In this document: positions 1,624 through 32,539 of the stretch, piece by piece
Position numbering within the stretch: the stretch's first letter is position 1
Layout: each line of letters starts with the position of its first letter
Source: a virus
DNA length: 64,000 nucleotides
Virus record (IMG/VR): IMGVR_UViG_3300010354_000044
Location: 32,001 to 96,000 of that record
Strand: one strand, 5' to 3'
Notes under the pieces: generated by a model
Told to the model about the DNA's origin: nothing
Database searches by the model: none
What the model saw: only the letters and a program-made list of their open reading frames with translations
Position numbers and translations under genes: made by a program

Positions 1624-2181
1624 ATGGCTATACCTTCTTTGGCTTATCTACTCTCGGTCCAGAAGCTACTGGAAGTTTATGTGAAAGAGTCTCTTGTAGA
1701 CCTAACTAAGCCTCAGTGTAATATCAGAATTCCAGGCTTACCCGCTCGCATGGTTTGTAGCCAGCAGCTTCTAAATCTGAGTGATTTTAACTGGGACTTT
1801 AGTAATTATGATTTCTGTCTGTCTATCTTAGAATTGGAAGAGTCTATCGCTGACTCAATAGCACACGCTCAGATAAGTAATAATAACCTTTTTATTATTA
1901 TGAACGACTTTAAGTCGTATAACTTCCTAGTACCTAACTATCCAGCGCTTTATGATAAGCTTGTAGCCGCCCAGATGATTCGCCTAGGTTGTACCTTAAG
2001 AGAGTACCCGGGCAGATATATTGTCATAAAGGACATCTCTACAAAACTATTTGAAACAAATGGTATAGCCTGTAGCTGTGAAGCGCCTCTATGTAACCAC
2101 AGAACGCTGGCTAATGTTTACATCAATAATTCCAAGCTGTTGCAACCTATTGTAAGTGCCAGCATGCCTGGTTATTTCTGA
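1624..2181 (+). CDS. Hypothetical protein with C-terminal SWIM-like Zn finger
   Basis: CSCEAPLCNH fits the CxC...CxH pattern. Confidence 0.45.
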   Translation: MAIPSLAYLLSVQKLLEVYVKESLVDLTKPQCNIRIPGLPARMVCSQQLLNLSDFNWDFSNYDFCLSILELEESIADSIAHAQISNNNLFIIMNDFKSYNFLVPNYPALYDKLVAAQMIRLGCTLREYPGRYIVIKDISTKLFETNGIACSCEAPLCNHRTLANVYINNSKLLQPIVSASMPGYF

Positions 2182-3599
2182 TTTAACTTCCCACTAGGTT
2201 TACGCCCAGATACTGGTCTAGGTTTATCCAAAGGGGTAGAAACGCCTACGGGTCTGCCCGGCTGTACCTCTTCCAGCAATACCTTCTTGATAAAGTCTAC
2301 GTCCTTCTTATCGTGCGGCCTGTCTAAAGCTCTTACCATCTGCCGGACCATCTGGTGGTCAGTCGGATTCAAGGGGTTAAAGTAGCCAGACTTTGTCATA
2401 CCAGTGACGACTTGCATCATAGCCACACGATCTTCAGCCCGATCACTATAGACCCGAGAGAAGCTGGCTGCATACCGGGTTGATTCACGGTTGAAGTTAT
2501 ACTCAATTAGCCTTGAGAAGGCTTGGCGGGCAATAGGCTGTAGCAATAGATTCCTGTAGTGCTCCATATTGCCATAGTACAGCTCCATACGGCGCTCTAC
2601 CCCTTGTTCATTGTTATTCAATTCATTGGTAATAAGGAAAGGCGGGATACCCAGTGGTAAGATTTCTTGCTCAGTTACAAACCTAATAGCATCTATAAAC
2701 GTACTGCCGATATTATTTCCGGTGGTGAGAGAACCTACTTCAGGCTTATTCGCCCCATCCTGTTGGGGTAGGAATAGGATGTTACCGTTGGTATCTAAAT
2801 TCTGTATGGTCTCTTGAAATACATCCTGAGTGGTTAAACTACGCTCCTCGCCAGTAGCAGGGTCAATGGTAGTTTGATTGGTTGGGTAAACAGGCATCTT
2901 GACATATAGCAATGGATTACCATAACGGTCTAAAGCCACTGCCATCATGTCAATCAAGGCATCCTTTAACCTATGCCATTTATAACAAGGAGCTACCGCT
3001 GAATAACCATAATAATTACCAAATGCAGCATTATTAGCAACGTAGATGATCTTCCAGAAGGGCAGCTGCTTCTCGGGTCTAAATCTATTAGGTGTTTGAT
3101 AAATTCCTGATTTCCAGTACCCACCGGGCGTAGGTTTATTCTCGGTTAACATCCCGTTAACATCTGGGCGGATAATGATAGTGTTCGGCGGGTATGTCAC
3201 AATACCATCTAGGAACAGCGTACCCATGTCCAGATTATACAGATTCTCTGATACAGAGAACCCGGCCCACAAAGTCGTAAATATAGCTTGAAATAGTATT
3301 TCGTTTAGGTTCTGGTTGGTCTTATCCTGAAGTTTCTGAACGTTGTATTGTAGGAACTCTTTTATCTCTGGGTCCGGATGATAAACCGTACCAACAGTAG
3401 ATAAGATACTCTTTACCATTATATTGAGGGCAGTAAAGAGCGTTGTATCCTGATAGACCATCTGCTCGTAAGTTTTTAGCTTCTGGAGCGATGGGCGTAA
3501 GGTTCCTACTGGGATAGACCCTTGCTGCCTGGATGCACCCCGTATTTGACGCCTGCTCTCAAAGCGTCTATCTACTGTATAAAGGGTAGATGGGGCCAT
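2172..3599 (-). CDS. Portal protein (Mu gp29/DUF935-like)
   Basis: 475 aa; YEQMVYQD, WAGFSVSE, FGNYYGYSAVAPCYKWH, LDRYGNPLLYVK segments typical of this portal family. Confidence 0.75.
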   Translation of the reverse strand: MAPSTLYTVDRRFESRRQIRGASRQQGSIPVGTLRPSLQKLKTYEQMVYQDTTLFTALNIMVKSILSTVGTVYHPDPEIKEFLQYNVQKLQDKTNQNLNEILFQAIFTTLWAGFSVSENLYNLDMGTLFLDGIVTYPPNTIIIRPDVNGMLTENKPTPGGYWKSGIYQTPNRFRPEKQLPFWKIIYVANNAAFGNYYGYSAVAPCYKWHRLKDALIDMMAVALDRYGNPLLYVKMPVYPTNQTTIDPATGEERSLTTQDVFQETIQNLDTNGNILFLPQQDGANKPEVGSLTTGNNIGSTFIDAIRFVTEQEILPLGIPPFLITNELNNNEQGVERRMELYYGNMEHYRNLLLQPIARQAFSRLIEYNFNRESTRYAASFSRVYSDRAEDRVAMMQVVTGMTKSGYFNPLNPTDHQMVRQMVRALDRPHDKKDVDFIKKVLLEEVQPGRPVGVSTPLDKPRPVSGRKPSGKLNQK

Positions 3600-3810: not shown

Positions 3811-4347
3811 TTAAGTTAAAAACCGCGCAATACTAGAGCCAGGGTCTCTCGGGAATTGCAGCTTAGACTGATTTTCAGCTCTAATCATATCCAGCTTCTT
3901 CTCCTGTTCCCTAGCTGCCCGCTCCCGAGCTCTGACAACTTCTTCTACTTCCCAAGCGATAGCCTTTTTGATTAGGTCATCCAGGCCATGATCTTGCATC
4001 CATGGGTCTCGGCCTAACCAGTCTTGTATGGGTAGATACGTAATCTGGTTGATAGCCACCCAAGAGGCTATGTCATACTTCTTAGCTACTGCCTGTACTA
4101 AATCCTGCTGATCGTTAAAGTCGCTAAAAAATGCTTGTTCGTCCGAGGTGTACTCAAATCTAATCAAGAAATCAACAGCTGTTGAAGCTAAGGCGCCCAG
4201 TAAGTAATATAACGGTTCAAAAACCTCTACTCTATAAATTGGATAGTTGTCTAAGAAACAGTGGCTTTGCGGGATTGTACTGGCGTAGTAGCTTCTGTCA
4301 AGTCTTTGGGACCTGAGGATAGCTGCTGCCTCAGATCGCCAGCTAAC
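3811..4347 (-). CDS. -1 frame extension of tail assembly chaperone (gpGT-like C-terminal part)
   Basis: The frame of ORF 3811..4167 stays open upstream to the A AAA AAG site at 4353-4347, and is closed by TGA just before it. Confidence 0.7.
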   Translation of the reverse strand, partial: VSWRSEAAAILRSQRLDRSYYASTIPQSHCFLDNYPIYRVEVFEPLYYLLGALASTAVDFLIRFEYTSDEQAFFSDFNDQQDLVQAVAKKYDIASWVAINQITYLPIQDWLGRDPWMQDHGLDDLIKKAIAWEVEEVVRARERAAREQEKKLDMIRAENQSKLQFPRDPGSSIARFLT

Positions 4348-5006
4348 TTTTTTGCGTCATCCATATCAGTATCGCCAATAGTAAACATATTGATGAACAC
4401 CGTAGCTGCAAACTGGACATCAGCAATATCCCAGCTATCTAGAATAGAGATAACATCCTTTGGCTTTTCTACCTCTACGTCATTGACAGTAGCTAAGCAG
4501 TACGATAATAGAAACTCTTCTAACGAACATCCAGTTTCAGCCATGCCATTATACTTTTTGTCTGCCTGAAACTGTACGCCGGTAGAAGGGGTATTGAACT
4601 CAATAGTAAGGTTTGGGTTTGGCATAGACCCTTTCGGAATTCTATACCGGGGTTGGTACTGCTTAGACAGGTTCTCTGCAATTTCCTTTGCACTTTGAGC
4701 TTGTTCCTTAGATAGAAACAGCAAGTCTGTCATAGCGATTGTTAGAAACTGTCGGTCCCGAATAGGAAAAGGCTCTAGTCTATCAACGAGGTCCCGGGGC
4801 TGACTATCAAAGGGCTTATCATCTACCTCTTTCATAGCAATAGCCAAAAGCAGCTCTTCCACCGAATAAGGCATACGCTCCTGTTGAGGGTAACGGCGGC
4901 GTGCGCTTCGGTACATACTATACGTCGGAATTTCCAACGTCAGTGAATATAGTTGAGACGGGATCTGGCTTTTGTCAATCCGCAGAGTCTTTACATCAAT
5001 AGCCAT
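4251..5006 (-). CDS. Tail assembly chaperone (gpG-like)
   Basis: 251 aa with internal two-fold repeat (SVEELLL/SLEEFLL); slippery heptamer near the 3' end. Confidence 0.65.
   Translation of the reverse strand: MAIDVKTLRIDKSQIPSQLYSLTLEIPTYSMYRSARRRYPQQERMPYSVEELLLAIAMKEVDDKPFDSQPRDLVDRLEPFPIRDRQFLTIAMTDLLFLSKEQAQSAKEIAENLSKQYQPRYRIPKGSMPNPNLTIEFNTPSTGVQFQADKKYNGMAETGCSLEEFLLSYCLATVNDVEVEKPKDVISILDSWDIADVQFAATVFINMFTIGDTDMDDAKKLAGDLRQQLSSGPKDLTEATTPVQSRKATVS
4347..4353 (-). other. Programmed -1 ribosomal frameshift site A AAA AAG
   Basis: Canonical X XXY YYZ heptamer in frame (GCA AAA AAG TTA), followed by a TAGCTG...CAGCTA stem. Confidence 0.7.
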
Positions 5007-5117: not shown

Positions 5118-5354
5118 ATGGTTTATGGCAAGCTTTTACTAGTTACTATTTTTGCTATGCTTTACCAACGATCTAAGGCTTCTAATCTGGCCCTACAACT
5201 TACATTGGTGTACATTATTGTAACTCTGAATTTTATATCAGCCGGTATTACTAATGCCGCGGCCACTAAAATAACAGCAGAACGTATGACGGGCCGGCCA
5301 TCGACCAATGAAGCTGTTACCTACAGGCATAAAACCACAACTCCTGCGTATTAA
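5118..5354 (+). CDS. Possible small hydrophobic protein
   Basis: Stop overlaps the start of the giant ORF (TAATG); no recognisable motif. Confidence 0.3.
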   Translation: MVYGKLLLVTIFAMLYQRSKASNLALQLTLVYIIVTLNFISAGITNAAATKITAERMTGRPSTNEAVTYRHKTTTPAY

Positions 5355-8300
5355 TGTCTTTATTCCCCGAGTACAATATATACGGGCCAGATAGTCTTGG
5401 GCGTGATGTACAAAGGTTAATAGATTCAGAAGCTGACCCTGAAAGTATTGCCCGACGTCAACTAACTTTGCCTAACCTAGAGGCAGAACGTGAAGTTGCA
5501 GCTTTTAGGTTAAACTACGGTGAGGTTCATACAAAGCCTGGGAATCGTTACAACATACTGGGCCAAAAGCTATATGACCCTTTACCTACTGCAGTAGAAG
5601 GTCGGTTGGCTACTGGCAATTTGCAGGCAAATATCACGCAAGATAGAACGATTCAATTAAGAGGGTTAGAGGTTATCAACACCCTTAACTCCGGGCTAGG
5701 GGGTACAGCAGCCCCCGCTCTTAGTAATCGCCAGGGTTCTATGGCAAATCGTTTTACTAAGACGACAGTTTTTGATAGCCTTGTAGGCCCTAGTGATACT
5801 AATATTTTACGGGGTCTTGTTAATAGTCCGGTATTTGAAGAGCCGGTTACTGTAAGGCCTACAACTCAAGATATATCAAACCAATTAGTCTTTCCGACTC
5901 AACAACGCACTAATTATAGTTCCCATTTAGGGGCCTTTGCTCATAAAAATGTTAATGAACAAGGGGTGCAGGAATTATACAATAGCGTTGTCAACCTACA
6001 AAATAGTCTGGGTAATGCTATTACGTCTATAGAAAGACAGTATGCCCAGCAAATGGTTAATGGCCGCATTGAACGAGTACTAGTCGGCGTTCGTGTAGGC
6101 ATTCGTAATTATAACGATTTATACGATGGCCTAGGTTTATATAGTCAGGCATCTTATCCCGGTGTACAGCGGGCGCACTATTTCAATTTCACAGTTAATA
6201 GAAACAACCAGGTTATAGAGACCAGTACTAATAGACTTATTACAGGCTCTCTAATCTCTCAAAACTCTGGTCATATCTCTAATATGGGGGGTCGCAATAG
6301 CGCTTATAACACCGTACTGGGTTTACTTTCTAGCTATGCTAGGTCGGCTGAAATTGAGGCTAAGTACGGAGTTACTCATAGTCTATTTAATATCATGGTT
6401 GCGAGGCAAGACTATAGCTCGTTAGGGCGGGTCTTTGCTGAAATGCTAATTCAACGTGACCAAAGTACTATTGTTAACCAGGGTAATAAGTTCAGGGAAA
6501 CGCTGGAGCTTTTACTAAGCACGACAAATAATAAGGGCCTATCGTCCATTGTAGAAAATACGGTTGATAGGATCGCCAGACAAGGTCTAGATTACTATAC
6601 AACCATTGGGGCTCTATTAGATAAAGATGTACTAGAGCAGCAAATTAATAAACTTTATAGTTATAGGAAGCAGCAGCTACTAAAGGCCTTTGAACCTATT
6701 ACGTCCCATGTAGGTGGGATTAACGAGACGTTTGGTCTAGCTGTAGATACAACTTTACGCAACCTCAATGAGCTTGTAGCTAACGATGCCGAGCAGTTTT
6801 CTATTCCTATAAACGGGCGGCGGGTCACTATTGCCGGGTTTGAAGACCTGAAAATGGCTGCGTTGTCCCTCAGTCCATCGGAGCACGCTCATTATGATTT
6901 TAGAAAGAATCAAGCGAGTAGTTCCATATTGCAGCTTTTGATGTCGCCGTTTCTAATGCCGCACGAAACAGGCTTCAGCGGCTCCCAGGCTGCCGCTCGG
7001 CTTGGTTTCTACCACATGGTAGAAACTAGGGGTGGGCGTAATATGTATGAAATATACCCTGCAGTCTACCGGCATGGTTTCGGCGGCACAAAACCTGGGG
7101 AGTACATTAAATTAATCTCAGCACAGTCCGCTAAGTCCAGCTTATTTAAATACACCTCCCATTTATATAACTTTACCGGAGCCAAGAAAGTCGTAGAGTT
7201 CTTTGAAACTCGTACAGTCTTTGAAGGTATGCCCGCCTTGCGCTATAGCTCCCTCAAAGAAGTAAGGGAACACTTGCAGAGTATCAACTATACAAGCGCT
7301 GATGAGATTATAAAAAATTACAAGACTCGGATGCATCTTGGGGCGGATGAGGAGGATGACACTGAGATTCTACTACTGCCCTTTAGAAAGGCCGAGCAGA
7401 TTAGCCAGCGGTTAAAGAATCTACTAGGCGGGCGTCCTATGCTAGAACTTAACACAACCTTCCGCCAAGCTATTCTGAAGCAGGATAAAGAGGCTCTGCT
7501 TAACTTGTTTGAGCGTAATGAGTTCGGGGATTTGTATCTAAGCGCGAACGCCCTGGCCGGTGAAGTGCCCGCTAATCTAAACAAGATACAATATGACCGT
7601 CTTATTCTAGAACGGAATCGTATCATAAAACGTCTAGGCTACGAAGGTAGGGCTTTAAGTGATAGCGAAAAACTCATACTATCCACCGAGCTTGTTAAGG
7701 CCATGCGGGCAGCAGAGCTTGATATATTTGACGGAGGCGGTTTTGTACAAGGTCGCCGGACCCGGCGAGTTGCTGTAGCAATGGGTGTGAACACCCTTAG
7801 CGACTTCATGCTTGTTAATAATGATTACTTGCAAGCATCGTCTTTTGGGTACATGCATGTTAGTAACCAAAAAATTGCTATTACGCATACCCTTAAAACA
7901 GATAAAGTCGGTACGATACGGCAGCCTGACCCTTTATTTGATGCAAAGGTCAACTTTATTGCTAGCGCATTTAGGCCAGGGACTATTGTCTACTTACAAC
8001 CAAAGGCTTTAGAGAATGAGAAGGTAAAGGATAGCTTAAGCAGATTAGCGGCTAAGTTACGCAGTGAATATCTGGCCAAGAATTTAGACAGCCGCTATTT
8101 AGATGCGCAGGTTACGCAAGCTTTACTACAGTCTTTCCCTGCTCTTGATTCAGTTAGCTTTACTGATGGTGAGTTAACCACAGTAATGCTCAAAGCTGGT
8201 GCATATCAGTTTACTAATGACTCCATTAACTTCCTAGGGGCTCTGGAAGGAAGCAGAATCCGACTAGGATTAATGAATAAAGGGGGGCGCTTTAATCTAA

Positions 8301-11300
8301 CCACTGGCCCTAGCTCAGAGCCTGGCACTGAGTTCTTCGAAATAAAAGTACCTGGAGAAGTCCGTAAGTACACAGGAGGTATGCTAGCTGTTGCCGGGCC
8401 TACCAAAGCAAAGCCAGGTCAGGGCGGCGGCCTAGAGCTAGAAATCCCCTGGTTAATAGAAACAGGAATTGGAGGTACAAGCCGGTCATCTTCCCTGACT
8501 AAGGGGCCTTGGTTAATGTACGACGGCGCCGGATTTGAAGCCTTTGGCACGGCTTTCAAAGCCAATTCTATGCTTTCACATCTCCAGAATGACAGCATCT
8601 TTGCCGTGATGAACCCGGGCGTTTTCAAGGCTTATAATTATGAATCTGGGCTGTCTATTCTACGGGATACTGCGTCTAGGCAAAGTCTACTGAATTTAAG
8701 TAGCGGCGATTTAAGTTTGATTCTGGGTATCGCGTTTTTACAAAAGAACACGGATACCCGTCTTCGGCAAGCCCTGGTCAATTACCTAGACAGTAACTCC
8801 AGTTCACTAGCAGTAAGCCCTTACTTACGAACGCTTATTCAAGATAAATCCTTTGGATCATCAGCGGCTAAGTTAGAAAACCTCTTACTAACAGCTCCTG
8901 ACTTAGCTACCTTAGTAGATAGTCCAACCCTTAGAGACTTTGGAGATAAATTAGCTGAGCAATTTGAGAGTGGGACTTTTGATATACAGAGCCGACTTGA
9001 AGCTATTGTTAATAGGGCTCTTAAAGGGTCTACGACTATTTATGAACAGATAGAAGGGGATGTACGGGGCATTCGCACGTTTGACGAGCGAAACTTTAGT
9101 GTACGTAGTGCCGGCATTTTAGCTGATATTATTCATACAACACAACAAACAATAGACCCAAGCCGTACTTTAGGTCGTATAACAGGCAGTAAACCCTTAA
9201 CAGGCCTTAACTTTATAGATGATCAAGGCCGCCCTAACGTTAGAAAATTTATAGATAACCGCGATTTCCGGGCTGCATCGTTAGACATGGCGCAAAAACT
9301 AAGGGTGCGCTCTCTGTTGCCCAATCAGAGTATTTTAGAGAGCTCTTTAAGTCAGCTCAGGGAGGGGGATGCTCTTTATAAGGACATAGAGAACCTGCTC
9401 TATGTTATCCATAGTTCGTTAATGGCGTCTCCCTACATTGAACGAGCCATTAATTTACTACCTAGTCGTGTTTTATACCCGGCAGGCTCTGAGGACGCTG
9501 TAGGCCTAGAATACCATTATTCTTTAAGCCTTAGTAAAAAAGAGTTTGCGGCCTTACGGGGGCAGGGGCTTGATATGGAAAGGTTCACCCAAGCCCAAGC
9601 TGCTTATAGCACTGTTGTAACCCATAGTGGTGTTAATGAAATTAGCCGTAGGATGGAGATTATATCTCCATTTGGTGTAGACCCAGCGCAGCGGAATTTA
9701 GGTCGTATCGTCTCGGCGCTTATACAGAATTACAATGAGATATCGGGTAAAGCTCAGTTTATTGGTAATGATAACCTTAGCCCCTTAGATGCTATTGTCC
9801 GTAGTATAAGCGCCGGGGATGAGACTGAGCTAAATAGCTTAATGTCCCGGTATCAACTTATTAATCAAGCCGTAAGGTATCATCGCGGCGTAGGCCCCTC
9901 TGACCAACAAAGTGCGGTTAATCTGATAAGTGCGGTTAATCTGATAACTGCGCTTAACCCGAGTCGGCTTGATTTAAGTCAAGCCACTGACGAGCAAATT
10001 AGAACCTTAGGAGCTTTATATAACCTAAGGGGCGATGTTACTACTATCCGGCAAAGGTTGTCGGAGTTAGGCCCTACGTTGGGCCGAGGTCTGCTTTATT
10101 TAGACCGCAGTGACAATCTATTTAGTGAAAGGCGCTTGGCTTTGTCTAAAGCCATTATAACCTACTCGGAGTTAAGACGAAATAAGGGGCTTACTGACTT
10201 AAGTTACAACCTAAGTCCTTATGCTGCTGACGTACAGTCTGCATTAGTAACTTCAAATGTTAATAGCTACAATATTGGGTTTCTTGAGTTTGAGCAGGCC
10301 TTAAATTTAGTCACAGACCAGTCCTCCGGACGCCTTGATGTTAGATACGCCGATAATAGGTCTACAAAGATACTTAATGTAGCCAGTAAATTGCAAGCTA
10401 ATGACGCTTTTGTAGAACGGCTAGCGTTGAACGCCGCGGGTACTAGCACTACAGATACGTTTATTAATTCTCTACAGCGAATAGTAGCCGGTACAGAGAA
10501 TATTCTTAAATTCTATGGAAAGGAGACTGAACAAGCCCAGAGAGCACTAAAACTTCGTAGTGAAGTTTACGATACAAAAACGTTGCTCCTACCTGCTATT
10601 GAAACATATACAGCGGGAGACGGGACTATTATAAAACTAGCTGAGTCAGATAGTAACGGAAAAGTACAGTATACAGATACTCCCGTAGTTCAACTAGGGT
10701 TGGATGTTCTAAGTCAAATACCTACTAGATTTGAATCTTACATTAATGAAGTTGTGGAACGCCAGCAACGTATTCGTGAGCTGATTCCTAAATTCCAGGA
10801 AGTGGTTAACCAATTACAGAAGGGCTTCATCTCTAATGCATCTGTCAGCGATATCAGCATTATAGAAGAGATGCAGCGATTAGCTTACGAAAGTCAACAT
10901 GATTTAGAATCTATTTTAACGTCTGTTCTGCAGCAGAATGCTGAGAACGAGAAGCGTAAATACCCTGGGGTGGCGTTTACAGCAGTAGCTGATTACTTAG
11001 CTACACCTACAGAGGCTTTTGTCGGTAAGCGAGTTACCTCCACTGGGTTAAACCAGGTAGTTAGGGATGCGAAAGCTACTTTAAACTCCCCGGAGCTGTC
11101 CAAGGTAGAAGTAGAAGCACTACAACGTATCGGCCAGTTAACCGGGTATGTCAACAGGGCTGGGGGCTTAAGCGGAGCAAGCCAGTCTACTAACATGCTC
11201 CATGATGTTAAGTCTCAGGCTATTCTAAAAGAACGTGGTCAGCTAGAGAATAATCAATTACAGCTATCTCTACAGGGTAATGAAACAGCCTTGATTGTTT

Positions 11301-14300
11301 CTATGTACGGACGATTCGGGGTCCATGGCGGTGACTTTGATGGTGACTCTTATCAGCTGATATTCGGATTTAGGGATATCCAAGAAAGCCTTGTCAAGGC
11401 TATTCAGCACCGCGATGCTATCCGTAATAGCCTGCTAAACCTACAGAGTCAATCTACTCTAAATTCAGATTACAATGTCGCTATTCAAGGTAGGATATCC
11501 AATCTACAGACAGCCCTTACCGCCAGCCAGCAGGACGTAGATAGGTTAATTACTGAGGTAGATAATCTAAGCACCATTACCGCCGACCGGGTTAAAGAGG
11601 GTATGCGTAGGCACGTAGCTGCTTTTACGGGTATTCCCTTGTCTTTGGCTCTAAAACCGGAATATTACAGCGATGAAGAAATCGCGTACATGATTGAACA
11701 GCAGCGAGGGGTTACTCCGGGTTTGACTGACGCCGGCGAGAAGTATGGCGATCAAATAACAAAGTTTACTCAGCTGTTTAACAGACTTAATCCAACCACT
11801 CTCGCTAGTGCCTCGGATGAGATTATTGATTCTGAAGCTAGCCGACTCAAGTTCAGCGCAGAGGAGCTTAGTCTCTTCAAGGAGTTTGCCCGCCAAGATA
11901 ATTTGTACGCGGACAATCTAACGGCTTCGGACCGTAACCGTTTATTTACCGAATCTATCACGTCTTATTTTAACCTGCACATGGGTTTATCTGAAGGGAA
12001 TAAATTTGCCCAGGCCGCCGCAGGTTCTGTATTGGATTTAGGAACCTTTGAGGTTCTCCAGACGGTAGTAGGTAATGTAGGGACATCCTTAATTGGTGAA
12101 GGCTATAACGCTATCACGACACTTATTGGCCGCAGTGTTCTAGCTAGAACTATGGGGCAGGCCTTAAATGACCCTACTACAAATATAGGCGAGGGAATCG
12201 TTCAAGCGCTGGATACCCTAAATACCAATAATACTTTAGACGATAATGTAACCCGTATCAAAGACTTATTTTCAGAAGGGCGATTAAAGCAAACGGCGGC
12301 GTTTGCCGAGTCCCGGGCCCAGCAGTTACAAATGAATTTAGGGCTTATCCAGCAAATCATCCGGGACTCGCTAAAGCCAAAACAAGAGGGAGGGACTATT
12401 GCGGCCATTGCGGAGCAGATGGGCGATGAAAGCTTTAAGACTAAGTTCCTTAACGAGCAAGATACGGACACGCGCATGGAGTTGTTGCGCAACTTCGTGT
12501 CCACCAGAGCGGTGACAACCATGGTTGGGAGTCAGACCTCTGGTAATACTTCCCTTATCAATACCTTCGGGGCTATCTTTTTATTAGCTGACTATACAAA
12601 GCTAGAGGACCCTACCTCTATGCTACGTAGTGATAGCCCTCGGTACGATACGCTGCGCCGCACCCAGCAACTATACAAATCAGCCGCAGAAGGGCTTGAC
12701 GTTAATCTTGAAAGTTTAGACGTTATCAGCCGCTTGAGACTCAAAGACAAAGAGTTTGTGGCCCGGATGGCGACAGATGAAGAATTTTTGGTACGTCAGA
12801 CAATAACTGATCTGATCAATACAGCGGTAGCTGAGGAGGCTTTCAATAAGTACTATGCTTATGGTCAAAGTGACGAATCTCTAATAAGCCGAGCTAACAT
12901 TGAGCGAGATAACTATATTAAAGCGTTATCCGACTCTAACCTTACAGGGGATAGCGGGCTGTACTTCAAGAACGAGCAGCACAGAGAAGCCGTCAGGAGA
13001 AGCCTCCATATAGATGGAAATACCGATGACTTTTTCTTTACGGCAGAGACGGCCCGGCAGTCCTTGTTAGACATAACTCTGGTGCGTAAAACCTTCCTGG
13101 GCATGACTGAGAGCGATGTAGAGTTCTCCCGGAAGGTCAATAGGGCCGGGTCCATTCTATCGCAGCCTGACATTAGTGCCAGTTTTGCCCCTTTTGCCAG
13201 TGCCCAGGCCGAGAACCTTGTAGCTATCCAACAATGGGCTAAGCGTGGTCGTATGGACGACCCTAGAGCCATGACTACATTTGAGATTGGTTCATCCGCA
13301 CGTTTATTTGACGCAATAGACCAGGTCCACCAGAATCTGACGGAGGAGTTTGGTTCTCTAGAAAACGCATTATCTAAACAGGAAGTATACGCAGCCTATT
13401 CTCAGATGGCCGAGCTCGCCGGCGTGTTTGATATTAGCAGGGAGGATAGTAATATTCTAAGCTTGGCGCTTCAGACAAGAGTTGAGGGCCGGCAGTCTAT
13501 ATTCTCAGAGTTAGCTAATTACAATGCCGGACTTGCTTATATGCAGGAACGTATTAACCAGCAACAGGATATTATTTCAAAAGGTACCTTAACTGATGCA
13601 GACGAAAGTCGGTTAAATACCCTTTACGCAGACCTAGAAGCTTTTGCCACCGGCTTAGATGCTAATGCCAATCAGAACGAGGCCTTCAGAGCTAAGGTAA
13701 GAGAGATTGGCGAGTTTCAGCGCTCCTTAAAAATGGACCAGGCTCAGCAGAGAAAGGCCACCTACGCCAATATTATTAATACAAAAATACATACACCTAC
13801 CTCCCTAGATGTTACTGGGTATGGGTTTAATAACACCTTGGAATTGTTTGCGGCCCCTATTATTGGGGCTGCGTTAATCCAAGGGGGACTTGACGAGCGG
13901 TTAGTCTCTGGGACTTACGATTTACTGCAGGGTCTGTCTACCGTTGAGGGTTCGGCCGGCAATGTAAGAGCACTAGAAGCTGACCGGTTATTTAGGTTGG
14001 CGCGCTTTAAAGAGCAAATGTTACAAGGGGAAAGTTTGCTTTTAGGTGCAACTCAAGCCCTAGCTGCCGAGACATTTTTCATGGGAACTGCGTCTTTAAT
14101 TGCCTCCAAATTACGTTCCCCCAACTCCCCCTCCCCTAACTCCCCTAACAATCGGCAGTCTGGTTTAAGTGGAATTATGGCCGAGGCAGTGGTTACAGCT
14201 GCTGCCTTGGCTTTTACTCGCCGGAACAACCAATATGGTATTGACGGAGAACCTTACCGAAATCTCGCTGCAGAGGCTCTATTACAGACAGCGGAAGCAA

Positions 14301-14509
14301 TAGAATCTAGCACCAGCGAATGGTTAGAACGTGCTATGGATATCCAGGTAGAAACGGAAGATCAAATTGTTACCTTTGATTTTGATCCTTCCATTGCCCC
14401 TAGTAGCTATGAAGAGCGTATTGTAACTGGCTGGATTGAGATGAGCATAGAAAACTCTGACGAATTTGCTAATGCTTATTATGAAACTGGGAATTATATT
14501 GATGGGTAA
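5354..14509 (+). CDS. Giant single-chain two-barrel RNA polymerase, probably virion-packaged and possibly tape-measure-fused
   Basis: GGDFDGD at 11333-11347, upstream VNRAGG, beta-like SLTKGP...IFAVMNPG at ~8490-8620; lies between tail chaperones and baseplate genes; hydrophobic helices near the C-terminus. Confidence 0.75.
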   Translation: MSLFPEYNIYGPDSLGRDVQRLIDSEADPESIARRQLTLPNLEAEREVAAFRLNYGEVHTKPGNRYNILGQKLYDPLPTAVEGRLATGNLQANITQDRTIQLRGLEVINTLNSGLGGTAAPALSNRQGSMANRFTKTTVFDSLVGPSDTNILRGLVNSPVFEEPVTVRPTTQDISNQLVFPTQQRTNYSSHLGAFAHKNVNEQGVQELYNSVVNLQNSLGNAITSIERQYAQQMVNGRIERVLVGVRVGIRNYNDLYDGLGLYSQASYPGVQRAHYFNFTVNRNNQVIETSTNRLITGSLISQNSGHISNMGGRNSAYNTVLGLLSSYARSAEIEAKYGVTHSLFNIMVARQDYSSLGRVFAEMLIQRDQSTIVNQGNKFRETLELLLSTTNNKGLSSIVENTVDRIARQGLDYYTTIGALLDKDVLEQQINKLYSYRKQQLLKAFEPITSHVGGINETFGLAVDTTLRNLNELVANDAEQFSIPINGRRVTIAGFEDLKMAALSLSPSEHAHYDFRKNQASSSILQLLMSPFLMPHETGFSGSQAAARLGFYHMVETRGGRNMYEIYPAVYRHGFGGTKPGEYIKLISAQSAKSSLFKYTSHLYNFTGAKKVVEFFETRTVFEGMPALRYSSLKEVREHLQSINYTSADEIIKNYKTRMHLGADEEDDTEILLLPFRKAEQISQRLKNLLGGRPMLELNTTFRQAILKQDKEALLNLFERNEFGDLYLSANALAGEVPANLNKIQYDRLILERNRIIKRLGYEGRALSDSEKLILSTELVKAMRAAELDIFDGGGFVQGRRTRRVAVAMGVNTLSDFMLVNNDYLQASSFGYMHVSNQKIAITHTLKTDKVGTIRQPDPLFDAKVNFIASAFRPGTIVYLQPKALENEKVKDSLSRLAAKLRSEYLAKNLDSRYLDAQVTQALLQSFPALDSVSFTDGELTTVMLKAGAYQFTNDSINFLGALEGSRIRLGLMNKGGRFNLTTGPSSEPGTEFFEIKVPGEVRKYTGGMLAVAGPTKAKPGQGGGLELEIPWLIETGIGGTSRSSSLTKGPWLMYDGAGFEAFGTAFKANSMLSHLQNDSIFAVMNPGVFKAYNYESGLSILRDTASRQSLLNLSSGDLSLILGIAFLQKNTDTRLRQALVNYLDSNSSSLAVSPYLRTLIQDKSFGSSAAKLENLLLTAPDLATLVDSPTLRDFGDKLAEQFESGTFDIQSRLEAIVNRALKGSTTIYEQIEGDVRGIRTFDERNFSVRSAGILADIIHTTQQTIDPSRTLGRITGSKPLTGLNFIDDQGRPNVRKFIDNRDFRAASLDMAQKLRVRSLLPNQSILESSLSQLREGDALYKDIENLLYVIHSSLMASPYIERAINLLPSRVLYPAGSEDAVGLEYHYSLSLSKKEFAALRGQGLDMERFTQAQAAYSTVVTHSGVNEISRRMEIISPFGVDPAQRNLGRIVSALIQNYNEISGKAQFIGNDNLSPLDAIVRSISAGDETELNSLMSRYQLINQAVRYHRGVGPSDQQSAVNLISAVNLITALNPSRLDLSQATDEQIRTLGALYNLRGDVTTIRQRLSELGPTLGRGLLYLDRSDNLFSERRLALSKAIITYSELRRNKGLTDLSYNLSPYAADVQSALVTSNVNSYNIGFLEFEQALNLVTDQSSGRLDVRYADNRSTKILNVASKLQANDAFVERLALNAAGTSTTDTFINSLQRIVAGTENILKFYGKETEQAQRALKLRSEVYDTKTLLLPAIETYTAGDGTIIKLAESDSNGKVQYTDTPVVQLGLDVLSQIPTRFESYINEVVERQQRIRELIPKFQEVVNQLQKGFISNASVSDISIIEEMQRLAYESQHDLESILTSVLQQNAENEKRKYPGVAFTAVADYLATPTEAFVGKRVTSTGLNQVVRDAKATLNSPELSKVEVEALQRIGQLTGYVNRAGGLSGASQSTNMLHDVKSQAILKERGQLENNQLQLSLQGNETALIVSMYGRFGVHGGDFDGDSYQLIFGFRDIQESLVKAIQHRDAIRNSLLNLQSQSTLNSDYNVAIQGRISNLQTALTASQQDVDRLITEVDNLSTITADRVKEGMRRHVAAFTGIPLSLALKPEYYSDEEIAYMIEQQRGVTPGLTDAGEKYGDQITKFTQLFNRLNPTTLASASDEIIDSEASRLKFSAEELSLFKEFARQDNLYADNLTASDRNRLFTESITSYFNLHMGLSEGNKFAQAAAGSVLDLGTFEVLQTVVGNVGTSLIGEGYNAITTLIGRSVLARTMGQALNDPTTNIGEGIVQALDTLNTNNTLDDNVTRIKDLFSEGRLKQTAAFAESRAQQLQMNLGLIQQIIRDSLKPKQEGGTIAAIAEQMGDESFKTKFLNEQDTDTRMELLRNFVSTRAVTTMVGSQTSGNTSLINTFGAIFLLADYTKLEDPTSMLRSDSPRYDTLRRTQQLYKSAAEGLDVNLESLDVISRLRLKDKEFVARMATDEEFLVRQTITDLINTAVAEEAFNKYYAYGQSDESLISRANIERDNYIKALSDSNLTGDSGLYFKNEQHREAVRRSLHIDGNTDDFFFTAETARQSLLDITLVRKTFLGMTESDVEFSRKVNRAGSILSQPDISASFAPFASAQAENLVAIQQWAKRGRMDDPRAMTTFEIGSSARLFDAIDQVHQNLTEEFGSLENALSKQEVYAAYSQMAELAGVFDISREDSNILSLALQTRVEGRQSIFSELANYNAGLAYMQERINQQQDIISKGTLTDADESRLNTLYADLEAFATGLDANANQNEAFRAKVREIGEFQRSLKMDQAQQRKATYANIINTKIHTPTSLDVTGYGFNNTLELFAAPIIGAALIQGGLDERLVSGTYDLLQGLSTVEGSAGNVRALEADRLFRLARFKEQMLQGESLLLGATQALAAETFFMGTASLIASKLRSPNSPSPNSPNNRQSGLSGIMAEAVVTAAALAFTRRNNQYGIDGEPYRNLAAEALLQTAEAIESSTSEWLERAMDIQVETEDQIVTFDFDPSIAPSSYEERIVTGWIEMSIENSDEFANAYYETGNYIDG

Positions 14510-16532: not shown

Positions 16533-17591
16533 ATGCCCGCAGGCTTCAATTTTATTACTGGCGATTTTACTGTAACCCCATCTATTGCACTTAATGACTT
16601 AAACCCTAGTCTAAGGGACAGGATTAAGTTATTTGGGGGTAGTGGGGGTCAAAACGGCACAACAGATTTTGTAGCTACCGCAGATACGACATTAGATCAA
16701 GGTTTTTACTTCTTTCGTAATTTTACAGTTACTGAATGTACAGTAACTATTAATAAATTTGCCTATATTTTCTGCACGGGTAATGTACTGATCAACCAAG
16801 GTCAATTGTTTGTAACCCCCGCCGCTCCTGGGGGTACACCTGGTTACCTGGACCTCGCAGCCGCAACTGGTGCCGCTTTCGGTGGTAGGCCGGGCTTCGG
16901 GGCAGGCACTACAGAAGTAGAAGTTATAAGCCAGCCTAGATACGGTGTTCCAGGTACTGCTTATCCTTGGACACTCCAGCCCTTCGGCAGCGGCGGCAGT
17001 GCTGGTTATGTGACCGGTACTAGTGGGGACGTGAGGGCGGGTAATGGCGGTGCTGGGGGTGGGGGCTTAATCATTGAGGCAATTGGCTCAATTACGATCA
17101 TTCCTGCAGCGGGTTTACCAGGGTCAAGGTCAGCGATCGCAGCTGATGGTGTAGCAGGCACTAATGGCTTTATTGGCGTAGGCGCCGTTGGTGCTGCTTC
17201 CGGTGGTGGGGGCGGTAGTGGCGGATTAGTTAAGTTGTCTAGTCTAACGTCTATCGTCTTTAATGCTGGCTCATCAGGCAATTTTTGCATCTCCGCTCAA
17301 GGTGCCGATGGCGGGGACGGAGTTGCTAGTGACGGACTTGATGCTGGCGGAGGTGGTGGCGGTGGCGGAGGATGGGTGCTACTAACCGCACCTAGCCTTA
17401 CGTTTAATGGAGCATCCAGGGTCCTCCCTGGGCTTATTGGTACTACAATTGGCACACTTGGTGCCAGTCCTGGTGGTGGCTACGGGGGCGCTTTTGGTGG
17501 CAATGGCGGGTCAAATACTGAAGCTACCAATCCAATTATTGATGCGGCCCGCGTCGGGCGGTATATTAGCCGTACTTGGAGAGAGTTTTAG
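16533..17591 (+). CDS. Glycine-rich tail fibre-like protein
   Basis: Repeated GGGGGSGG-LVxL motifs; GGGAGAGGG RBS upstream. Confidence 0.6.
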   Translation: MPAGFNFITGDFTVTPSIALNDLNPSLRDRIKLFGGSGGQNGTTDFVATADTTLDQGFYFFRNFTVTECTVTINKFAYIFCTGNVLINQGQLFVTPAAPGGTPGYLDLAAATGAAFGGRPGFGAGTTEVEVISQPRYGVPGTAYPWTLQPFGSGGSAGYVTGTSGDVRAGNGGAGGGGLIIEAIGSITIIPAAGLPGSRSAIAADGVAGTNGFIGVGAVGAASGGGGGSGGLVKLSSLTSIVFNAGSSGNFCISAQGADGGDGVASDGLDAGGGGGGGGGWVLLTAPSLTFNGASRVLPGLIGTTIGTLGASPGGGYGGAFGGNGGSNTEATNPIIDAARVGRYISRTWREF

Positions 17592-21238: not shown

Positions 21239-21612
21239 GTTCTATTCAAAGTCAAACATTTGGGGGCACCTTTATTAACATGGGAGTACAAGGTATTGGG
21301 CCCACCTCGCCCCTTAACAGTATTACACCCGTAACTACTCATTCACTTTATGTGCAAAGGACTACAAGCTTAGCTGACCCTCAAGGAGCCCGAGAAGTTC
21401 TTTGGGTTGCAGCAGGGGCGACATCAGCTGGGTGGGTTGTAGCCTCCGCTACACCTATTCGGCGATATAGCGTTAATAACCCTGCCGGGACAGTGATAGC
21501 TGACTTTGTAGGGCAGTCTTTGATTAATTACTCTATAGACGAATACGGGAACTCAAGCACCGCAACCCTTTATATATCTGGGAGTGGGAGTACCTCATGG
21601 TATGCCGTATAG
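21235..21612 (+). CDS. Small structural protein
   Basis: N-terminus MSSIQSQTF nearly identical to that of the 22554 gene. Confidence 0.45.
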   Translation: MSSIQSQTFGGTFINMGVQGIGPTSPLNSITPVTTHSLYVQRTTSLADPQGAREVLWVAAGATSAGWVVASATPIRRYSVNNPAGTVIADFVGQSLINYSIDEYGNSSTATLYISGSGSTSWYAV

Positions 21613-22511
21613 CATTTCTTCGGCCTCCATTAGTAGACAACCGCGTGGCTGGCCGACATATCTCAACCCTAGAGCTTGTCAAAGGTCTAAGAAGTATTGG
21701 TGTTAACGCCGTTTACACACATAACCTAAAGGCCAAGGCAGACTACTATGCCGTTGACTGTTTAGAAGATATCCGATGGCTGCCCGATGTAGCTCCAGCC
21801 AGGCGAATTGCTTGGATTAGGCGTGATGTCTATAAGCAGGTACAACGTCCTGTTATTGAAGGTGTTGGGCATTTATTCGCAAGCAGCCAGTTTGTCGCCC
21901 GGGCGTGGAAAGAGTACCCAGTGACAGTCCTACCCGATGCCGTATATCTACCCGCTTGGATACGTCCTCATGTTCGCCACCGTTTACTCTACGTTGGCAG
22001 GGTCTGCCGAAGTAAAGGTATACCCTTATTACTCCAAGCTATGAAGTTCCTGAATTATCGTTGGCATCTAACAATAGCTGGGCCGATTCTTGCAGATTTT
22101 GGCCCAATGGTAGAAAACTATAATATTAAATATCATGTTAAATTTACCGGGGAGCTGCCTTACTGGCGCATTGGTCAGTTATACCGGCAAGCAGAATGTG
22201 TCATAGTCCCGAGCCATAATGAGCCCTTTGGCCGCGCTGTTGTTGAGTCTTGGGCAAATGGATCTACCCCGATCGCTATCGCTGGTAGTGGGGGCCCAGA
22301 GGAAACGCTACAGCAGGTTTCATTAGCAAAGTTCCCTTATTTAGTTCCGCATAACCCTAAGCAGATTGCTAAAGCTATTCGCTGGGTAACCGAGTCTGAT
22401 GGCGATGGTATCCCCTATCGTCTTGATTATGAACACTGCCGAGAACTGGCTAAACCTTATGATAGGCGGTCTATTGCTAAACAATTTATGGAGCATTTAA
22501 CTAATGCTTAG
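21597..22511 (+). CDS. Glycosyltransferase family 4 (GT-B)
   Basis: LLYVGRVCRSKG, PSHNEPFGRAVVES (E-x7-E), GGPEE. Confidence 0.85.
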   Translation: MVCRIAFLRPPLVDNRVAGRHISTLELVKGLRSIGVNAVYTHNLKAKADYYAVDCLEDIRWLPDVAPARRIAWIRRDVYKQVQRPVIEGVGHLFASSQFVARAWKEYPVTVLPDAVYLPAWIRPHVRHRLLYVGRVCRSKGIPLLLQAMKFLNYRWHLTIAGPILADFGPMVENYNIKYHVKFTGELPYWRIGQLYRQAECVIVPSHNEPFGRAVVESWANGSTPIAIAGSGGPEETLQQVSLAKFPYLVPHNPKQIAKAIRWVTESDGDGIPYRLDYEHCRELAKPYDRRSIAKQFMEHLTNA

Positions 22512-26471: not shown

Positions 26472-26726
26472 TTATTGTACAAAAACTGTATTAGAGCCTT
26501 GGATGCAAACGCCGCCCCCACTATTCCTATCCATCTTCCGATGCGCCCGCCGACCTTCTATGTAAACCCGGCTTGATCCTGTGGTAGCTACAAAGCGCAC
26601 AAGCCTATCGCCTACCGTAGCCGCTTTGCGGTTATTGACAAAGGTGCGTTTGCTTCTGCATCGGGTAATAGGTCTAATCCCGCGCCAGGTTACCTCTAGG
26701 TCCCCTAATCTAGCTTGTGGTTTCAT
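26472..26726 (-). CDS. PAAR-family spike tip protein
   Basis: QARLGD, TFVNNRKAATVGD, GSSRVYIEGRRAHRKMD, GSNTVFV. Confidence 0.85.
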   Translation of the reverse strand: MKPQARLGDLEVTWRGIRPITRCRSKRTFVNNRKAATVGDRLVRFVATTGSSRVYIEGRRAHRKMDRNSGGGVCIQGSNTVFVQ

Positions 26727-27546
26727 TTTGTATAGGTTGGTATAGAGTATTATCAATTAGATTTTGAAGGGCTATTGATTTACATTCCTCAATTAGCCGA
26801 CTCTCTAGGCTGAGATCAATGGTAGGGATATCTCGGTGCTCATAGTTATCCAAATCAGCGGACCAATAGTCTCCTATCTCTTGATCCGTTGCCAAGGTCT
26901 GAATAGATGTTAGGGCAAATTGTTCTACGGTCTGCGTCGTTTGGGTAACTCCGTAAATAACCCTATTAGGTAATTTCCGGATAGTCGCTAGACTCAAGGG
27001 TCTATAGAGGGCTATGTTTGCAGGCGTCTCCTGGGCTGGTACAGTATCACTTAGTAACGTCCGCCTGCGCTGCTCTGCTAGGATAGCCTCTTTTTCGTCT
27101 GCATAGGGCTGTCCAGAATACCCAAAAGAGTAATGCTTTAAGTTTAGTGTCTGACTCTCATAGACAACATCAGTATCTGCCCAGAGTTCGTTAAGCCCTC
27201 GCCCATTAACCCTTCCTGTGTAGGCTTCTTCAATTAAACTCTCGGGCGCGGTAATAGGTTCAGTAAATACAGAGGCACTGCTTGTAAAATAAAATAGCCG
27301 AATATCTAAGTTACCAATGTTTAGAGTTAATTTAGGAATAAACGGTCTATTGGCTAAGCGATCGTAGGATTGGATTCGGACGATAGCGCCCTGCTCAAGA
27401 CGGAGTTCAAACTGCATCTGCTGGTATACTAACCCCCCGCCATATTGCTCTTGTTGGCTATACAGCGGGCGGGCTAAGTCCGGCAGATTCAAGTCCTTGG
27501 TTACAATAATCATATAGAAATATCTGCGGTACTTTGGGTTTAGCAC
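26710..27546 (-). CDS. Hypothetical protein (start may be 27513)
   Basis: Long ORF overlapping the PAAR start. Confidence 0.5.
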   Translation of the reverse strand: MLNPKYRRYFYMIIVTKDLNLPDLARPLYSQQEQYGGGLVYQQMQFELRLEQGAIVRIQSYDRLANRPFIPKLTLNIGNLDIRLFYFTSSASVFTEPITAPESLIEEAYTGRVNGRGLNELWADTDVVYESQTLNLKHYSFGYSGQPYADEKEAILAEQRRRTLLSDTVPAQETPANIALYRPLSLATIRKLPNRVIYGVTQTTQTVEQFALTSIQTLATDQEIGDYWSADLDNYEHRDIPTIDLSLESRLIEECKSIALQNLIDNTLYQPIQNETTS

Positions 27547-27572: not shown

Positions 27573-27887
27573 TCAGAAGTCTAATTCCTGAGCCGCTGGA
27601 AGTGTAACCCCCTTGGAGGCCTTTACGGACTTATCCGCAACAGGCCTTGGCGTCTCTTTTACTACCGGCTCTTGTATAGCAACGGTGCTGCTGCGCGATC
27701 GCTCCACCGCGGCGTTAGTAGGAGGGGCTGTTGACTGAGGTTTATCTAAATAATCCCACGAGACCGTAAGCATAAACTCAAAGACATCGGCCCAGTTTAG
27801 CCTGGCGCGGCGCCTGTTTTCTTGCAGCCGGGTTTTTAATGCTTTTAAACCCTCTACAATCTTTAGGTCCGATATCCTATAGTTCAT
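27573..27887 (-). CDS. ParR-like adaptor/DNA-binding protein
   Basis: Coupled downstream of the actin-like gene (ATGA overlap); disordered tail ending ELDF. Confidence 0.5.
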   Translation of the reverse strand: MNYRISDLKIVEGLKALKTRLQENRRRARLNWADVFEFMLTVSWDYLDKPQSTAPPTNAAVERSRSSTVAIQEPVVKETPRPVADKSVKASKGVTLPAAQELDF

Positions 27888-28972
27888 CCTACCATGACTC
27901 CTACGCGCTGGTTGCTTAGCCTATACAGGGCATGTACATTGCTGAGCTCGGGTTGATCAGGGATATAGATTTCAAAATTCTTCAAAGGGGCGCGCAGAAT
28001 GTTAGCTCCACCGCCGAAGAACATAATACCACTCATCCCTTCACTGCCCGTAGAACCTTTAAATCTATTACTGCACTTAGACTGAATCTCTAGATAATAC
28101 GAGCGAGCTACTTTCCTAAAGATATCAGAAAAGTCAAAGCGCTGATTATTATCCAAGGGGTACTCATATCGCGGTTTGCCGTCATGGCCAATCACCGGGC
28201 GGCATAAAGCATCCATAATAATACCAGAATTGGGAATACCAGTTACTGCATTACGAAATTCTGGGTTATCTGCCAATTGGCTTGTAATAGCGACTACGCC
28301 CGCCAAGGGTGAGCCATTAGAGCCATTATAAGATTCGCGGTCTAGTAGGGTGTTGTCACTATCTAAGGTCACCATCTCAACGGTGCCCCCGCCAATATCC
28401 ACACCTAAAACAGTTCCATATTCCGATAGGTAACCATCTTCCCGCGCAAATACAACAGCATCTAAGCCCTCCGGGCGGCAAACCTTAGGCTTAATAGCAA
28501 CCGTCATATCATAGGCGCCGCTATGGTCCGTATAGGTATACCGGAAAGTCCGCGCGAGGGCCCGCTCCAATCGCTCAGCGACGGTCATCGTAATCTCTTC
28601 ACCCACGTCATCGCGCCCGCGGCAAATTAAACTAGGTTCAGGAAGACTCCAATAAAGTTCTACCTCATAGGAGCAGACTCGCTTACTTAAAGGCCCTAGT
28701 GTAGATAAAACCATAGGCACATAATTTTCAGGCTCAAGCTTGTTTAAGTCCATCAGCTCATGGGCCGCCGCCCCATACTTACGAGCCTGATGCCCAATAT
28801 GCCACGCCCCATATTCATTAGATTCAATAATTACATTATCTGGCTTTACTTCAATCCGGCGGCCAATTAGCTGAGCCATAACTGACTTGCGAGTCCTCGG
28901 CGCCGTCTCATCATCACGTAGTCCATAAGTTGTGTAATTACCAACGTCAATAGCTTGACTAATCGTAGGCAT
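27884..28972 (-). CDS. parM: ParM/StbA-family actin-like ATPase
   Basis: Phosphate-1 AIDVGNYTT, RPEG, phosphate-2 GVDIGGGT, adenosine FFGGGA, PELSNV. Confidence 0.85.
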   Translation of the reverse strand: MPTISQAIDVGNYTTYGLRDDETAPRTRKSVMAQLIGRRIEVKPDNVIIESNEYGAWHIGHQARKYGAAAHELMDLNKLEPENYVPMVLSTLGPLSKRVCSYEVELYWSLPEPSLICRGRDDVGEEITMTVAERLERALARTFRYTYTDHSGAYDMTVAIKPKVCRPEGLDAVVFAREDGYLSEYGTVLGVDIGGGTVEMVTLDSDNTLLDRESYNGSNGSPLAGVVAITSQLADNPEFRNAVTGIPNSGIIMDALCRPVIGHDGKPRYEYPLDNNQRFDFSDIFRKVARSYYLEIQSKCSNRFKGSTGSEGMSGIMFFGGGANILRAPLKNFEIYIPDQPELSNVHALYRLSNQRVGVMVG

Positions 28973-29397: not shown

Positions 29398-29485
29398 AAG
29401 ACCTTGCCGAGTGGTCTTAAAAAATGCTCGGACGGTTTGCCTAGTCCGCTAAAGCTAGGTTGCTGTCGATTCCCAAGGAGGGAAT
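29398..29485 (+). ncRNA. Structured leader: pseudoknot PK1 + pseudoknot PK3 + SD hairpin
   Basis: Covarying copy of the motifs at 32211, 32657 and 33325. Confidence 0.65.
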
Positions 29486-29668
29486 ATGTCTAAAGTAACT
29501 CTAACTGCCGCAACTCTCGTAGTCCTTCTAGGGCTAGGAGGTTGTATGGAGCAGGAGTCTAGCTCCTGCTCGGTCAACGAGCAGGGGGCAGTAGTGAGCG
29601 AGGGGCACGACTGCCCCTCCTCCCATGACCGATTCCCCCGGCGCCGCCAAGGGCCTGGGACCTGGTAA
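29486..29668 (+). CDS. Small lipoprotein
   Basis: AAGGAGG RBS; signal peptide with LGGC lipobox. Confidence 0.6.
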   Translation: MSKVTLTAATLVVLLGLGGCMEQESSSCSVNEQGAVVSEGHDCPSSHDRFPRRRQGPGTW

Positions 29669-29673
29669 CTAAG

Positions 29674-29859
29674 ATGACCTACTACAGGGGTCATTAAATA
29701 AGCTGTAGTTCCCTACCCTGGTGGGCTTGGTGCGGTCCGATTCCGCACTAGGGTTTTGCCTTGAATTTCTTTCTCCAAGGATATTCACACAGGTACTTAG
29801 AGTACAGGCGAAATCTTGTGTATGGATGCCTTTATGCCTACACAAGCTAGGAGAAAAAG
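29674..29859 (+). ncRNA. Structured leader: PK1 + tRNA-like element + 3-way junction/anti-SD module
   Basis: Near-copies at 31504-31685 and 30739-30885 with compensatory changes. Confidence 0.7.
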
Positions 29860-30189: not shown

Positions 30190-30195
30190 CTAAAC

Positions 30196-31488: not shown

Positions 31489-31503
31489 AGTTACTTCCCT
31501 GCT

Positions 31504-32084: not shown

Positions 32085-32092
32085 CCAGCCAC

Positions 32093-32526: not shown

Positions 32527-32539
32527 ACCCTGGAATTTA

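Follow-up and report, generated by a model that had tools for sequence, protein, structure and literature searches.

We describe here a giant open reading frame (ORF) and its surroundings in a 64,000-nucleotide stretch of viral DNA, hereafter the window, which comprises bases 32001-96000 of the IMG/VR record IMGVR_UViG_3300010354_000044 (171,984 bp, ~87% complete as judged by CheckV). The ORF lies at the head of an operon of structural and host-recognition genes, and its product, which we call the giant, matched no family in Pfam, PHROGs or PDB sequence searches (Table 1). A first-pass annotation, made from the sequence alone, had read the giant as a candidate two-barrel RNA polymerase (RNAP) that is injected from the virion or fused to a tape measure, citing GGDFDGD, NRAG, TKG and AVMNPG motifs and Ala/Gly-rich hydrophobic segments near the C-terminus. 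All four motifs are present, with TKG at residues 1049-1051, AVMNPG at 1084-1089, NRAG at 1934-1937 (a second, unrelated NRAG lies at 2596) and the GGDFDGD loop further on, and two hydrophobic segments of the composition described were found close to the C-terminus.

The main new result of our analysis is the gene pair beside the giant, which at the level of sequence carries the signature of a gpG/gpGT (P2 E/E+E') tail chaperone. The first gene, G, is an internal tandem duplication, and it contains the slippery heptamer A_AAA_AAG in phase; in G genes of 251-268 codons this heptamer is found 30-55 codons before the stop, with the -1 frame opening there and extending 137-146 codons further. The same heptamer occupies the same alignment column in the orthologues of three related genomes (L001, L010 and L011), with the G proteins of the four genomes being only 31-67% identical. 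In the Microcystis phage Ma-LMM01 (L016:23446-24239), the single-domain gp081 harbors AKKL encoded by A_AAA_AAG in phase at L016 23748, and gp082 lies in the -1 frame of gp081, a frame that is continuously open from the heptamer; these two have been annotated in the Ma-LMM01 record as separate genes and not as a frameshift pair. The divergent, frameshifting chaperone pair of the first-pass annotation is thus conserved in relatives, Ma-LMM01 included. Weak matches of the G orthologues to known families are in accord with this signature and comprise Phage_TAC_7 (E 0.056, one member) and phrog_166 'tail protein' (E 1.5e-5, one member), and one Atlas structural neighbor carries T4_baseplate, also a weak match, with a TM score of 0.49. 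Folding of the RNA downstream of the slippery site revealed no consistent stimulatory structure (z -2.0 to +1.0). As in lambda gpG/gpGT-gpH and P2 gpE/E+E'-gpT, the first gene has, close to its end, an in-phase heptamer for programmed -1 frameshifting, the extension is ~140 residues long and a very long helical protein adjoins the pair; unlike these systems, the window G is a tandem duplication of a chaperone-like domain, and the pair, beside the portal and 13 kb from sheath and tube, is transcribed in the direction that leads away from the giant.

Homologues of the giant make up a small family of proteins of 3000-3900 residues found only in cyanomyophage genomes of 135-208 kb. An exhaustive HMMER search yielded 19 proteins, nearly all of 3200-3900 residues, and a few further members, on viral contigs of 135-208 kb, came from word-indexed and IMG/VR searches; when the family alignment and a second giant ORF, described below, served as queries for word-indexed searches, the number of relatives did not rise. 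Among the members is gp080 of Ma-LMM01 (3562 residues, annotated as hypothetical), which was recognized through synteny and the family hidden Markov model (HMM; E 2.6e-48) and carries the loop LGDFDGDT, whereas queries covering the motif region and the initial 25 kb had zero tblastn or megablast matches among cultured phages. Gp080, with copies in MaMV-DC and MaMV-DH01, is a true homologue in the same position, divergent from gp081/gp082 and the portal, but it is only ~20-25% identical to the giant in alignable blocks and differs from it in having an N-terminal HKD motif.

Conservation, counted over 19-24 family members of 19-49% identity, spans the full length of the giant and is sharpest at G-D-[FWY]-D-G-D, which is invariant in 24/24 members covering the loop. 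Outside this loop, the invariant residues include those of the two candidate polymerase elements and of the two helical blocks in Table 1, with R1935 and G1937 falling within R-[AS]-[GP]-P and TKG being kept across the family as KGP; the N-terminal module has an invariant block of its own (P676-K679-Q682-Q685-R686-K688-N689-G692). In 6/11 members a DEDDh (RNase T/DnaQ-like) exonuclease is inserted between both motif regions (E 3.6e-5 to 9mrd_A), and this insertion was the sole match of the family profile to PDB. The giant of the window has no DEDDh domain, the insertion point being near residue 1545. Judging from their sequences, the exonuclease and HKD insertions suggest that the family may comprise nucleic-acid enzymes.

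Table 1. Positions of the giant, its parts and its relatives, and of other genes in the window and in the whole record
Feature	Position	Strand	Remarks
Giant ORF (P0001)	window 5354-14509	+	uninterrupted; 3051 codons, 3051 aa (amino acids)
N-terminal module, ~residues 1-1010	window 5354-8390	+	separate ORF in relative L012 (L012:2240-6643)
Candidate beta-like element, residues 1044-1099	window 8483-8650	+	invariant R1044, K1050, P1052, K1092, G1099
Candidate beta-prime-like element, residues 1931-2003	window 11144-11362	+	YVNRAGG ... NETALIVSMYGRFGVHGGDFDGDSYQLIF; invariant R1935, G1937, T1978, G1993-D-x-D-G-D1998
GGDFDGD loop, residues 1992-1998	window 11327-11347	+	best-conserved element of the family
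Long helical hairpin, ~residues 2007-2092	window 11372-11629	+	directly after the acidic loop; AlphaFold2 (AF2) models and VIA-align
Two invariant helical blocks	window 12023-12382	+	G2240-x-x-G-T-x-L-I-G-E-x-Y-N2252 and L2329 ... QQxxRDSLKxK2343
C-terminal hydrophobic Ala/Gly-rich segments, residues 2828-2846 and 2936-2955	window 13835-14218	+	conserved P2835, G2898, E2906, E2944
Candidate tail assembly chaperone G, 251 aa	window 4251-5006	-	tandem-domain; divergent from giant, adjacency conserved
Slippery heptamer A_AAA_AAG, in phase	window 4347-4353	-	codons 219-220, invariant KK column
T extension, -1 frame	window 3811-4356	-	open from heptamer to 146 codons past G stop; GT fusion ~365 aa
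Split giant in L012, 1467-aa ORF	L012:2240-6643		corresponds to N-terminal ~1000 residues
Split giant in L012, 2186-aa ORF	L012:6779-13339		both motif regions and C-terminal part
DEDDh insertion in P0006, ~residues 1515-1700	L001:14540-15100		also in P0005, P0007, P0010-P0012
Second giant ORF, 2859 aa	window 33363-41942	+	Dda/SF1B helicase, NADAR and macro domains
Mu-like portal	window 2172-3599	-	
PAAR-motif protein	window 26502-26735	-	33 bits summed; 12 kb downstream of giant
Large terminase	genome 5001-6752		
Baseplate_J	genome 10548-11603		after sheath and tube, away from giant
Beta-helix spike-like protein, 384 aa	genome 12638-13792	-	in sheath/tube tail block
Tail sheath, 1183 aa	genome 21999-25550		phrog_30392, 5.5e-43
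Lambda-E-type major capsid protein	genome 29385-30731		

Chaperone pairs of the gpG/gpGT type normally adjoin the tape measure gene and are said, in work by Xu, Hendrix and Duda from 2004, to act on tape measures. Because the giant adjoins such a pair, conserved and frameshifting, it is probably the tape measure, or at least a chaperoned, ejected tail-lumen protein, of Ma-LMM01-like cyanomyophages. The arrangement of portal (-), small genes, G/GT (-) and giant (+) is shared by the window, the contigs of two further family members (P0002 and P0004), L001, L010, L011 and Ma-LMM01. The first-pass annotation had found no other tape measure candidate in the window, and this holds for the whole 171,984-bp record, which was also searched: no other long helical protein of this kind was found in it, nor in the sheath, tube and baseplate block, and the record contains no match to PF10145 or PF20155, two tape measure families of Pfam. 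In both AF2 models the giant consists almost entirely of long helices from residue 2007 to 2460, at low confidence, and the two hydrophobic segments follow towards the C-terminus. In addition, gp080 of Ma-LMM01 is transcribed together with the portal and tube genes (class B5), with zero reads at 0-1 h and a rise at 3-6 h (Table S3, PMC5780444). Gene context and this middle/late expression of the homologue suggest that the giant is a component of the virion.

Some observations weigh against the giant being a tape measure: 1) the chaperone genes diverge from the giant instead of preceding it in the same orientation, which is atypical; 2) in the relative L012, in which the giant is split into two ORFs, no chaperone gene adjoins it; 3) the tail of MaMV-DH01 is 260 nm long (PMC9927357), which at ~1.5 Å per residue would call for ~1700 residues, half of the 3562-residue homologue in that phage. 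The last two of these points, together with the fact that the giant neighbors the portal and head genes and is remote from those of sheath and tube, would fit a giant that is a two-barrel RNAP packaged into the virion as cargo, like gp66 of crAss-like phages and functionally like the N4 virion RNAP, and not a tape measure. The true tape measure would then be an unrecognized smaller gene, conceivably one missing from a record that is only ~87% complete, and G/GT would either serve that gene or chaperone the giant for packaging. We regard this alternative as quite unlikely, given that neither the tail module nor the rest of the record offers another long helical protein, that no tape measure family was matched, and that G/GT pairs, known to act on tape measures, are here conserved beside the giant in five lineages. 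We also weighed gp064 of Ma-LMM01 (1673 residues) as another possible polymerase or tape measure and set it aside, since it lacks DxDGD and does not resemble the second giant ORF.

Another possibility is that the giant never enters the virion and is an intracellular enzyme or scaffold, for example in replication or transcription, whose gene happens to lie between blocks of structural genes. Accessory modules such as the exonuclease and HKD would be in place, too, in an enzyme that acts on nucleic acids inside the cell, but we find this possibility highly improbable in view of the operon that the giant heads, the conserved adjacency to portal and tail chaperones, the expression of the Ma-LMM01 homologue with morphogenesis genes and not early, and the membrane-like helices at the C-terminus of the giant.

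Whether the giant also contains a polymerase is more difficult to judge. We surmise that a single-chain two-barrel polymerase, brought in together with the DNA, may make up its central part, a proposal for which we see nearly even chances, with doubt slightly ahead. The exact pentapeptide DFDGD occurs twice in the genome vs. 0.015 occurrences expected (computed over 46,317 residues in ORFs of at least 150 residues), both of them in the two giant ORFs; R1044, K1050 and K1092 are invariant and lie ~950 residues upstream of the acidic loop. A bridge-helix-like role for the two invariant helical blocks at 2240-2252 and 2329-2343 is only a guess.

Several results stand on the other side. The first-pass claim of a two-barrel fold gained nothing from structure prediction: the AF2 model of residues 930-2110 (18 sequences) had a mean pLDDT (predicted local distance difference test) of 68.9, with both residues 1035-1090 and the DFDGD loop scoring under 50, the model of residues 1740-2460 (21 sequences) had a mean of 57.7 with values below 50 across 1927-2007, and a double-psi barrel was obtained at neither putative barrel region. 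Foldseek against PDB gave zero matches at E <= 0.001, its only suggestive rows being the AR9 non-virion RNAP (7s00_d; E 0.18, prob 0.63), which was the best RNAP row, and Pol I; VIA-align wide was swamped by the helical hairpins after the loop and returned no usable match, and no polymerase emerged from Pfam, PHROGs or PDB sequence and profile searches, nor did PF00623 or PF05183 match the genome. The alignment of the family with residues 1-1200 of gp96 from Thermus phage P23-45 by hhalign reached a probability of only 0.4% with the DFDGD loops unaligned, and that with P23-45 gp64 gave nothing. AVMNPG, which had been taken as a beta-like signature, is not conserved, since MNPG varies among family members, as does the N of NRAG. 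In an hhalign comparison of 170 residues around the loop with 81 bacterial beta-prime segments, NRAG aligned with NRAP and the loops with each other (P 0.0022), but this match was equalled by 88/100 column shuffles keeping only the seven motif columns and dropped to P 0.43 without the motif; because motif-keeping shuffles reproduce the match and it vanishes once the motif is removed, we attribute it to the motif alone. Moreover, Ma-LMM01 has sigma-70-like promoters before its early genes and no phage-specific motif (PMC5780444), and phages of its group are described as encoding no RNAP and using sigma-70-like promoters throughout (PMC9927357, PMC5780444), which counts somewhat against an injected polymerase. 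Two narrower searches, with an 85-residue loop profile against PDB and with residues 1880-2010 against the ESM Atlas, returned spurious matches only and chance-level autotransporter rows only, respectively. In a per-member Pfam scan, one family member touched the PF05183 RNA-dependent RNA polymerase family at E 0.059, a match too weak to use.

The failure, or explanation by the motif alone, of every RNAP fold and profile test is what one would expect if the giant were a tape measure or ejected tail protein whose DFDGD is a Ca2+/Mg2+ site of another enzyme, for instance a nuclease or a module acting on the cell envelope, or a structural site, the likeness to RNAP being a coincidence of five residues kept for another reason. 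The loop D-x-D-G-D also resembles calcium-binding loops, all of the tape measure context fits such a protein equally well, and other enzyme modules (DEDDh exonuclease, HKD motif) do occur in family members. Several findings nevertheless make us consider this explanation unlikely: 1) chance would hardly place the exact pentapeptide twice in one genome at the expectation given above; 2) the ORF that holds the second copy has additional beta-prime-like and beta-like patterns; 3) the loop is flanked by predicted strands in the low-confidence AF2 model and not by helix-loop-helix; 4) a two-barrel layout accommodates both R-[AS]-[GP]-P, invariant and upstream of the loop, and the Lys/Arg residues that are invariant ~950 residues before it; 5) the hhalign control fails likewise for the second giant ORF, the more beta-prime-like of the two, so the shuffle test has little power with such shallow alignments.

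That second ORF contains the beta-like RNGYKG and the beta-prime-like VRAPMTR ... LGDFDGDG, the latter at residue 2045. Its relatives, 41% and 26% identical, are found alongside members of the giant's family in at least two other phages, those of L010 and L011, as in the two-polymerase scheme of P23-45 (PMC10770324); neither Ma-LMM01 nor the phage of L012 has a relative. When the two giant families were compared by hhalign, RAGG aligned collinearly with RAPMTR and the DFDGD loops with each other in the best match (prob 73%, P 3e-5); in the corresponding control 7/60 motif-preserving shuffles scored as well and 53/60 lower. The ORF belongs to a block of richer G+C (0.50-0.55 at window 30000-50000 vs. 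0.42-0.48 in the structural half). The element GACC-N8-9-GGTC-N-TTAAATA occurs in 7-8 copies in the 172 kb genome, all in window 29400-33350 (+), where the copies precede small genes and the second giant ORF. This element could act as a phage-specific promoter, terminator or RNA element/module. In the same early region, 15-nucleotide periodic repeats in two small genes (window 29860-30190 and 31243-31470, +) encode pentapeptide-repeat proteins.

The precedent cited in the first-pass annotation is real: gp96 of P23-45 is a tape measure fused to a virion two-barrel RNAP (Chaban et al. 2024, PMC10770324). Like the giant, gp96 is a very large protein with a DFDGD loop, otherwise no detectable similarity to known RNAPs and hydrophobic segments further downstream, and it is encoded in a tail gene context in a genome shared with a second RNAP-like gene. 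There are also differences between the two systems: 1) P23-45, a siphovirus, has a tail of 800 nm, whereas the window phage is contractile-tailed; 2) the polymerase of gp96 is N-terminal with DFDGD at 779, while in the giant the motif is at 1994, after an N-terminal module of 1000 residues; 3) gp96 has a metallopeptidase domain that is absent from the giant; 4) the chaperone genes are divergent in the window; 5) no sequence similarity joins the two proteins, and the polymerase of the giant is only putative. A second point of comparison is gp66 of the crAss-like phage phi14:2, a large virion protein that was found through its DFDxD motif alone and enters with the DNA as a two-barrel enzyme of one chain (bioRxiv 10.1101/2020.03.07.982082); it differs in being a podovirus protein and a cargo instead of a tape measure. 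That the giant combines both functions, tape measure or ejected tail protein and two-barrel polymerase, in parallel to P23-45 gp96 and without detectable homology to it, we propose only tentatively.

If the giant does combine them, the following sequence of events can be envisaged. G and GT would cover the giant along its helical C-terminal part and gather tube subunits about it. Upon sheath contraction the giant would be expelled into the host, the C-terminal hydrophobic helices helping to form a conduit, and its central part (~residues 1010-2450) would refold into a single-chain two-barrel polymerase in which D1994, D1996 and D1998 may hold Mg2+ and R1044, K1050 and K1092 may be supplied by the first barrel. 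Transcription of the first phage genes would then fall to the ejected polymerase, as has been demonstrated for gp96 of P23-45, with its fusion to a tape measure. In its widest form, which we consider doubtful, this scenario would have a clade of freshwater cyanobacterial myophages, including the bloom-relevant Ma-LMM01 group, inject a tape-measure-fused single-chain two-barrel RNAP that evolved independently of gp96, starts at phage-specific elements (e.g. the hairpin-TTAAATA element at window 29400-33350) and switches on a second, helicase-fused polymerase. If the giant does unite both functions, tape-measure-fused virion polymerases would be a recurrent solution, found also in contractile-tailed phages and not a peculiarity of one Thermus siphovirus, and the early transcription of Ma-LMM01, now credited wholly to host RNAP, would need re-examination; the polymerase question is testable in the cultured Ma-LMM01 system. 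The firmer outcome is that a G/GT frameshift pair and a likely tape measure, both annotated as hypothetical, have been identified in the Ma-LMM01 lineage.

The remaining genes of the record agree with a contractile-tailed phage, as judged by the presence of sheath, tube-sized and baseplate genes. The sheath is followed by a tube-sized gene, an M23-peptidase protein, a lysozyme/hub-like protein, the beta-helix spike-like protein and Baseplate_J, and a Mu-like protease is also encoded in the record. Among cultured phages, those of the Microcystis Ma-LMM01 group (Fukuivirus) and Microcoleus phage My-WqHQDG are most closely related, with 24-28% identity in sheath and portal, in keeping with the cyanobacterial host that had been thought probable. 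The baseplate genes said to flank the giant were borne out in part: downstream of it there are weak matches to the virion protein phrog_1394 and, in an 845-residue ORF, to a baseplate-wedge-like C-terminal domain, as well as the PAAR-motif protein, but Baseplate_J is placed apart from them, behind sheath and tube. Within the operon that begins with the giant there is also a 352-residue protein (window 16533-17591, +) with 23% glycine, one hydrophobic segment and no family, and a GT4 glycosyltransferase is located at window 21597-22511 (+) within the structural/host-recognition operon. An Alp7A/ParM-like partition protein is encoded at window 27884-28972 (-).

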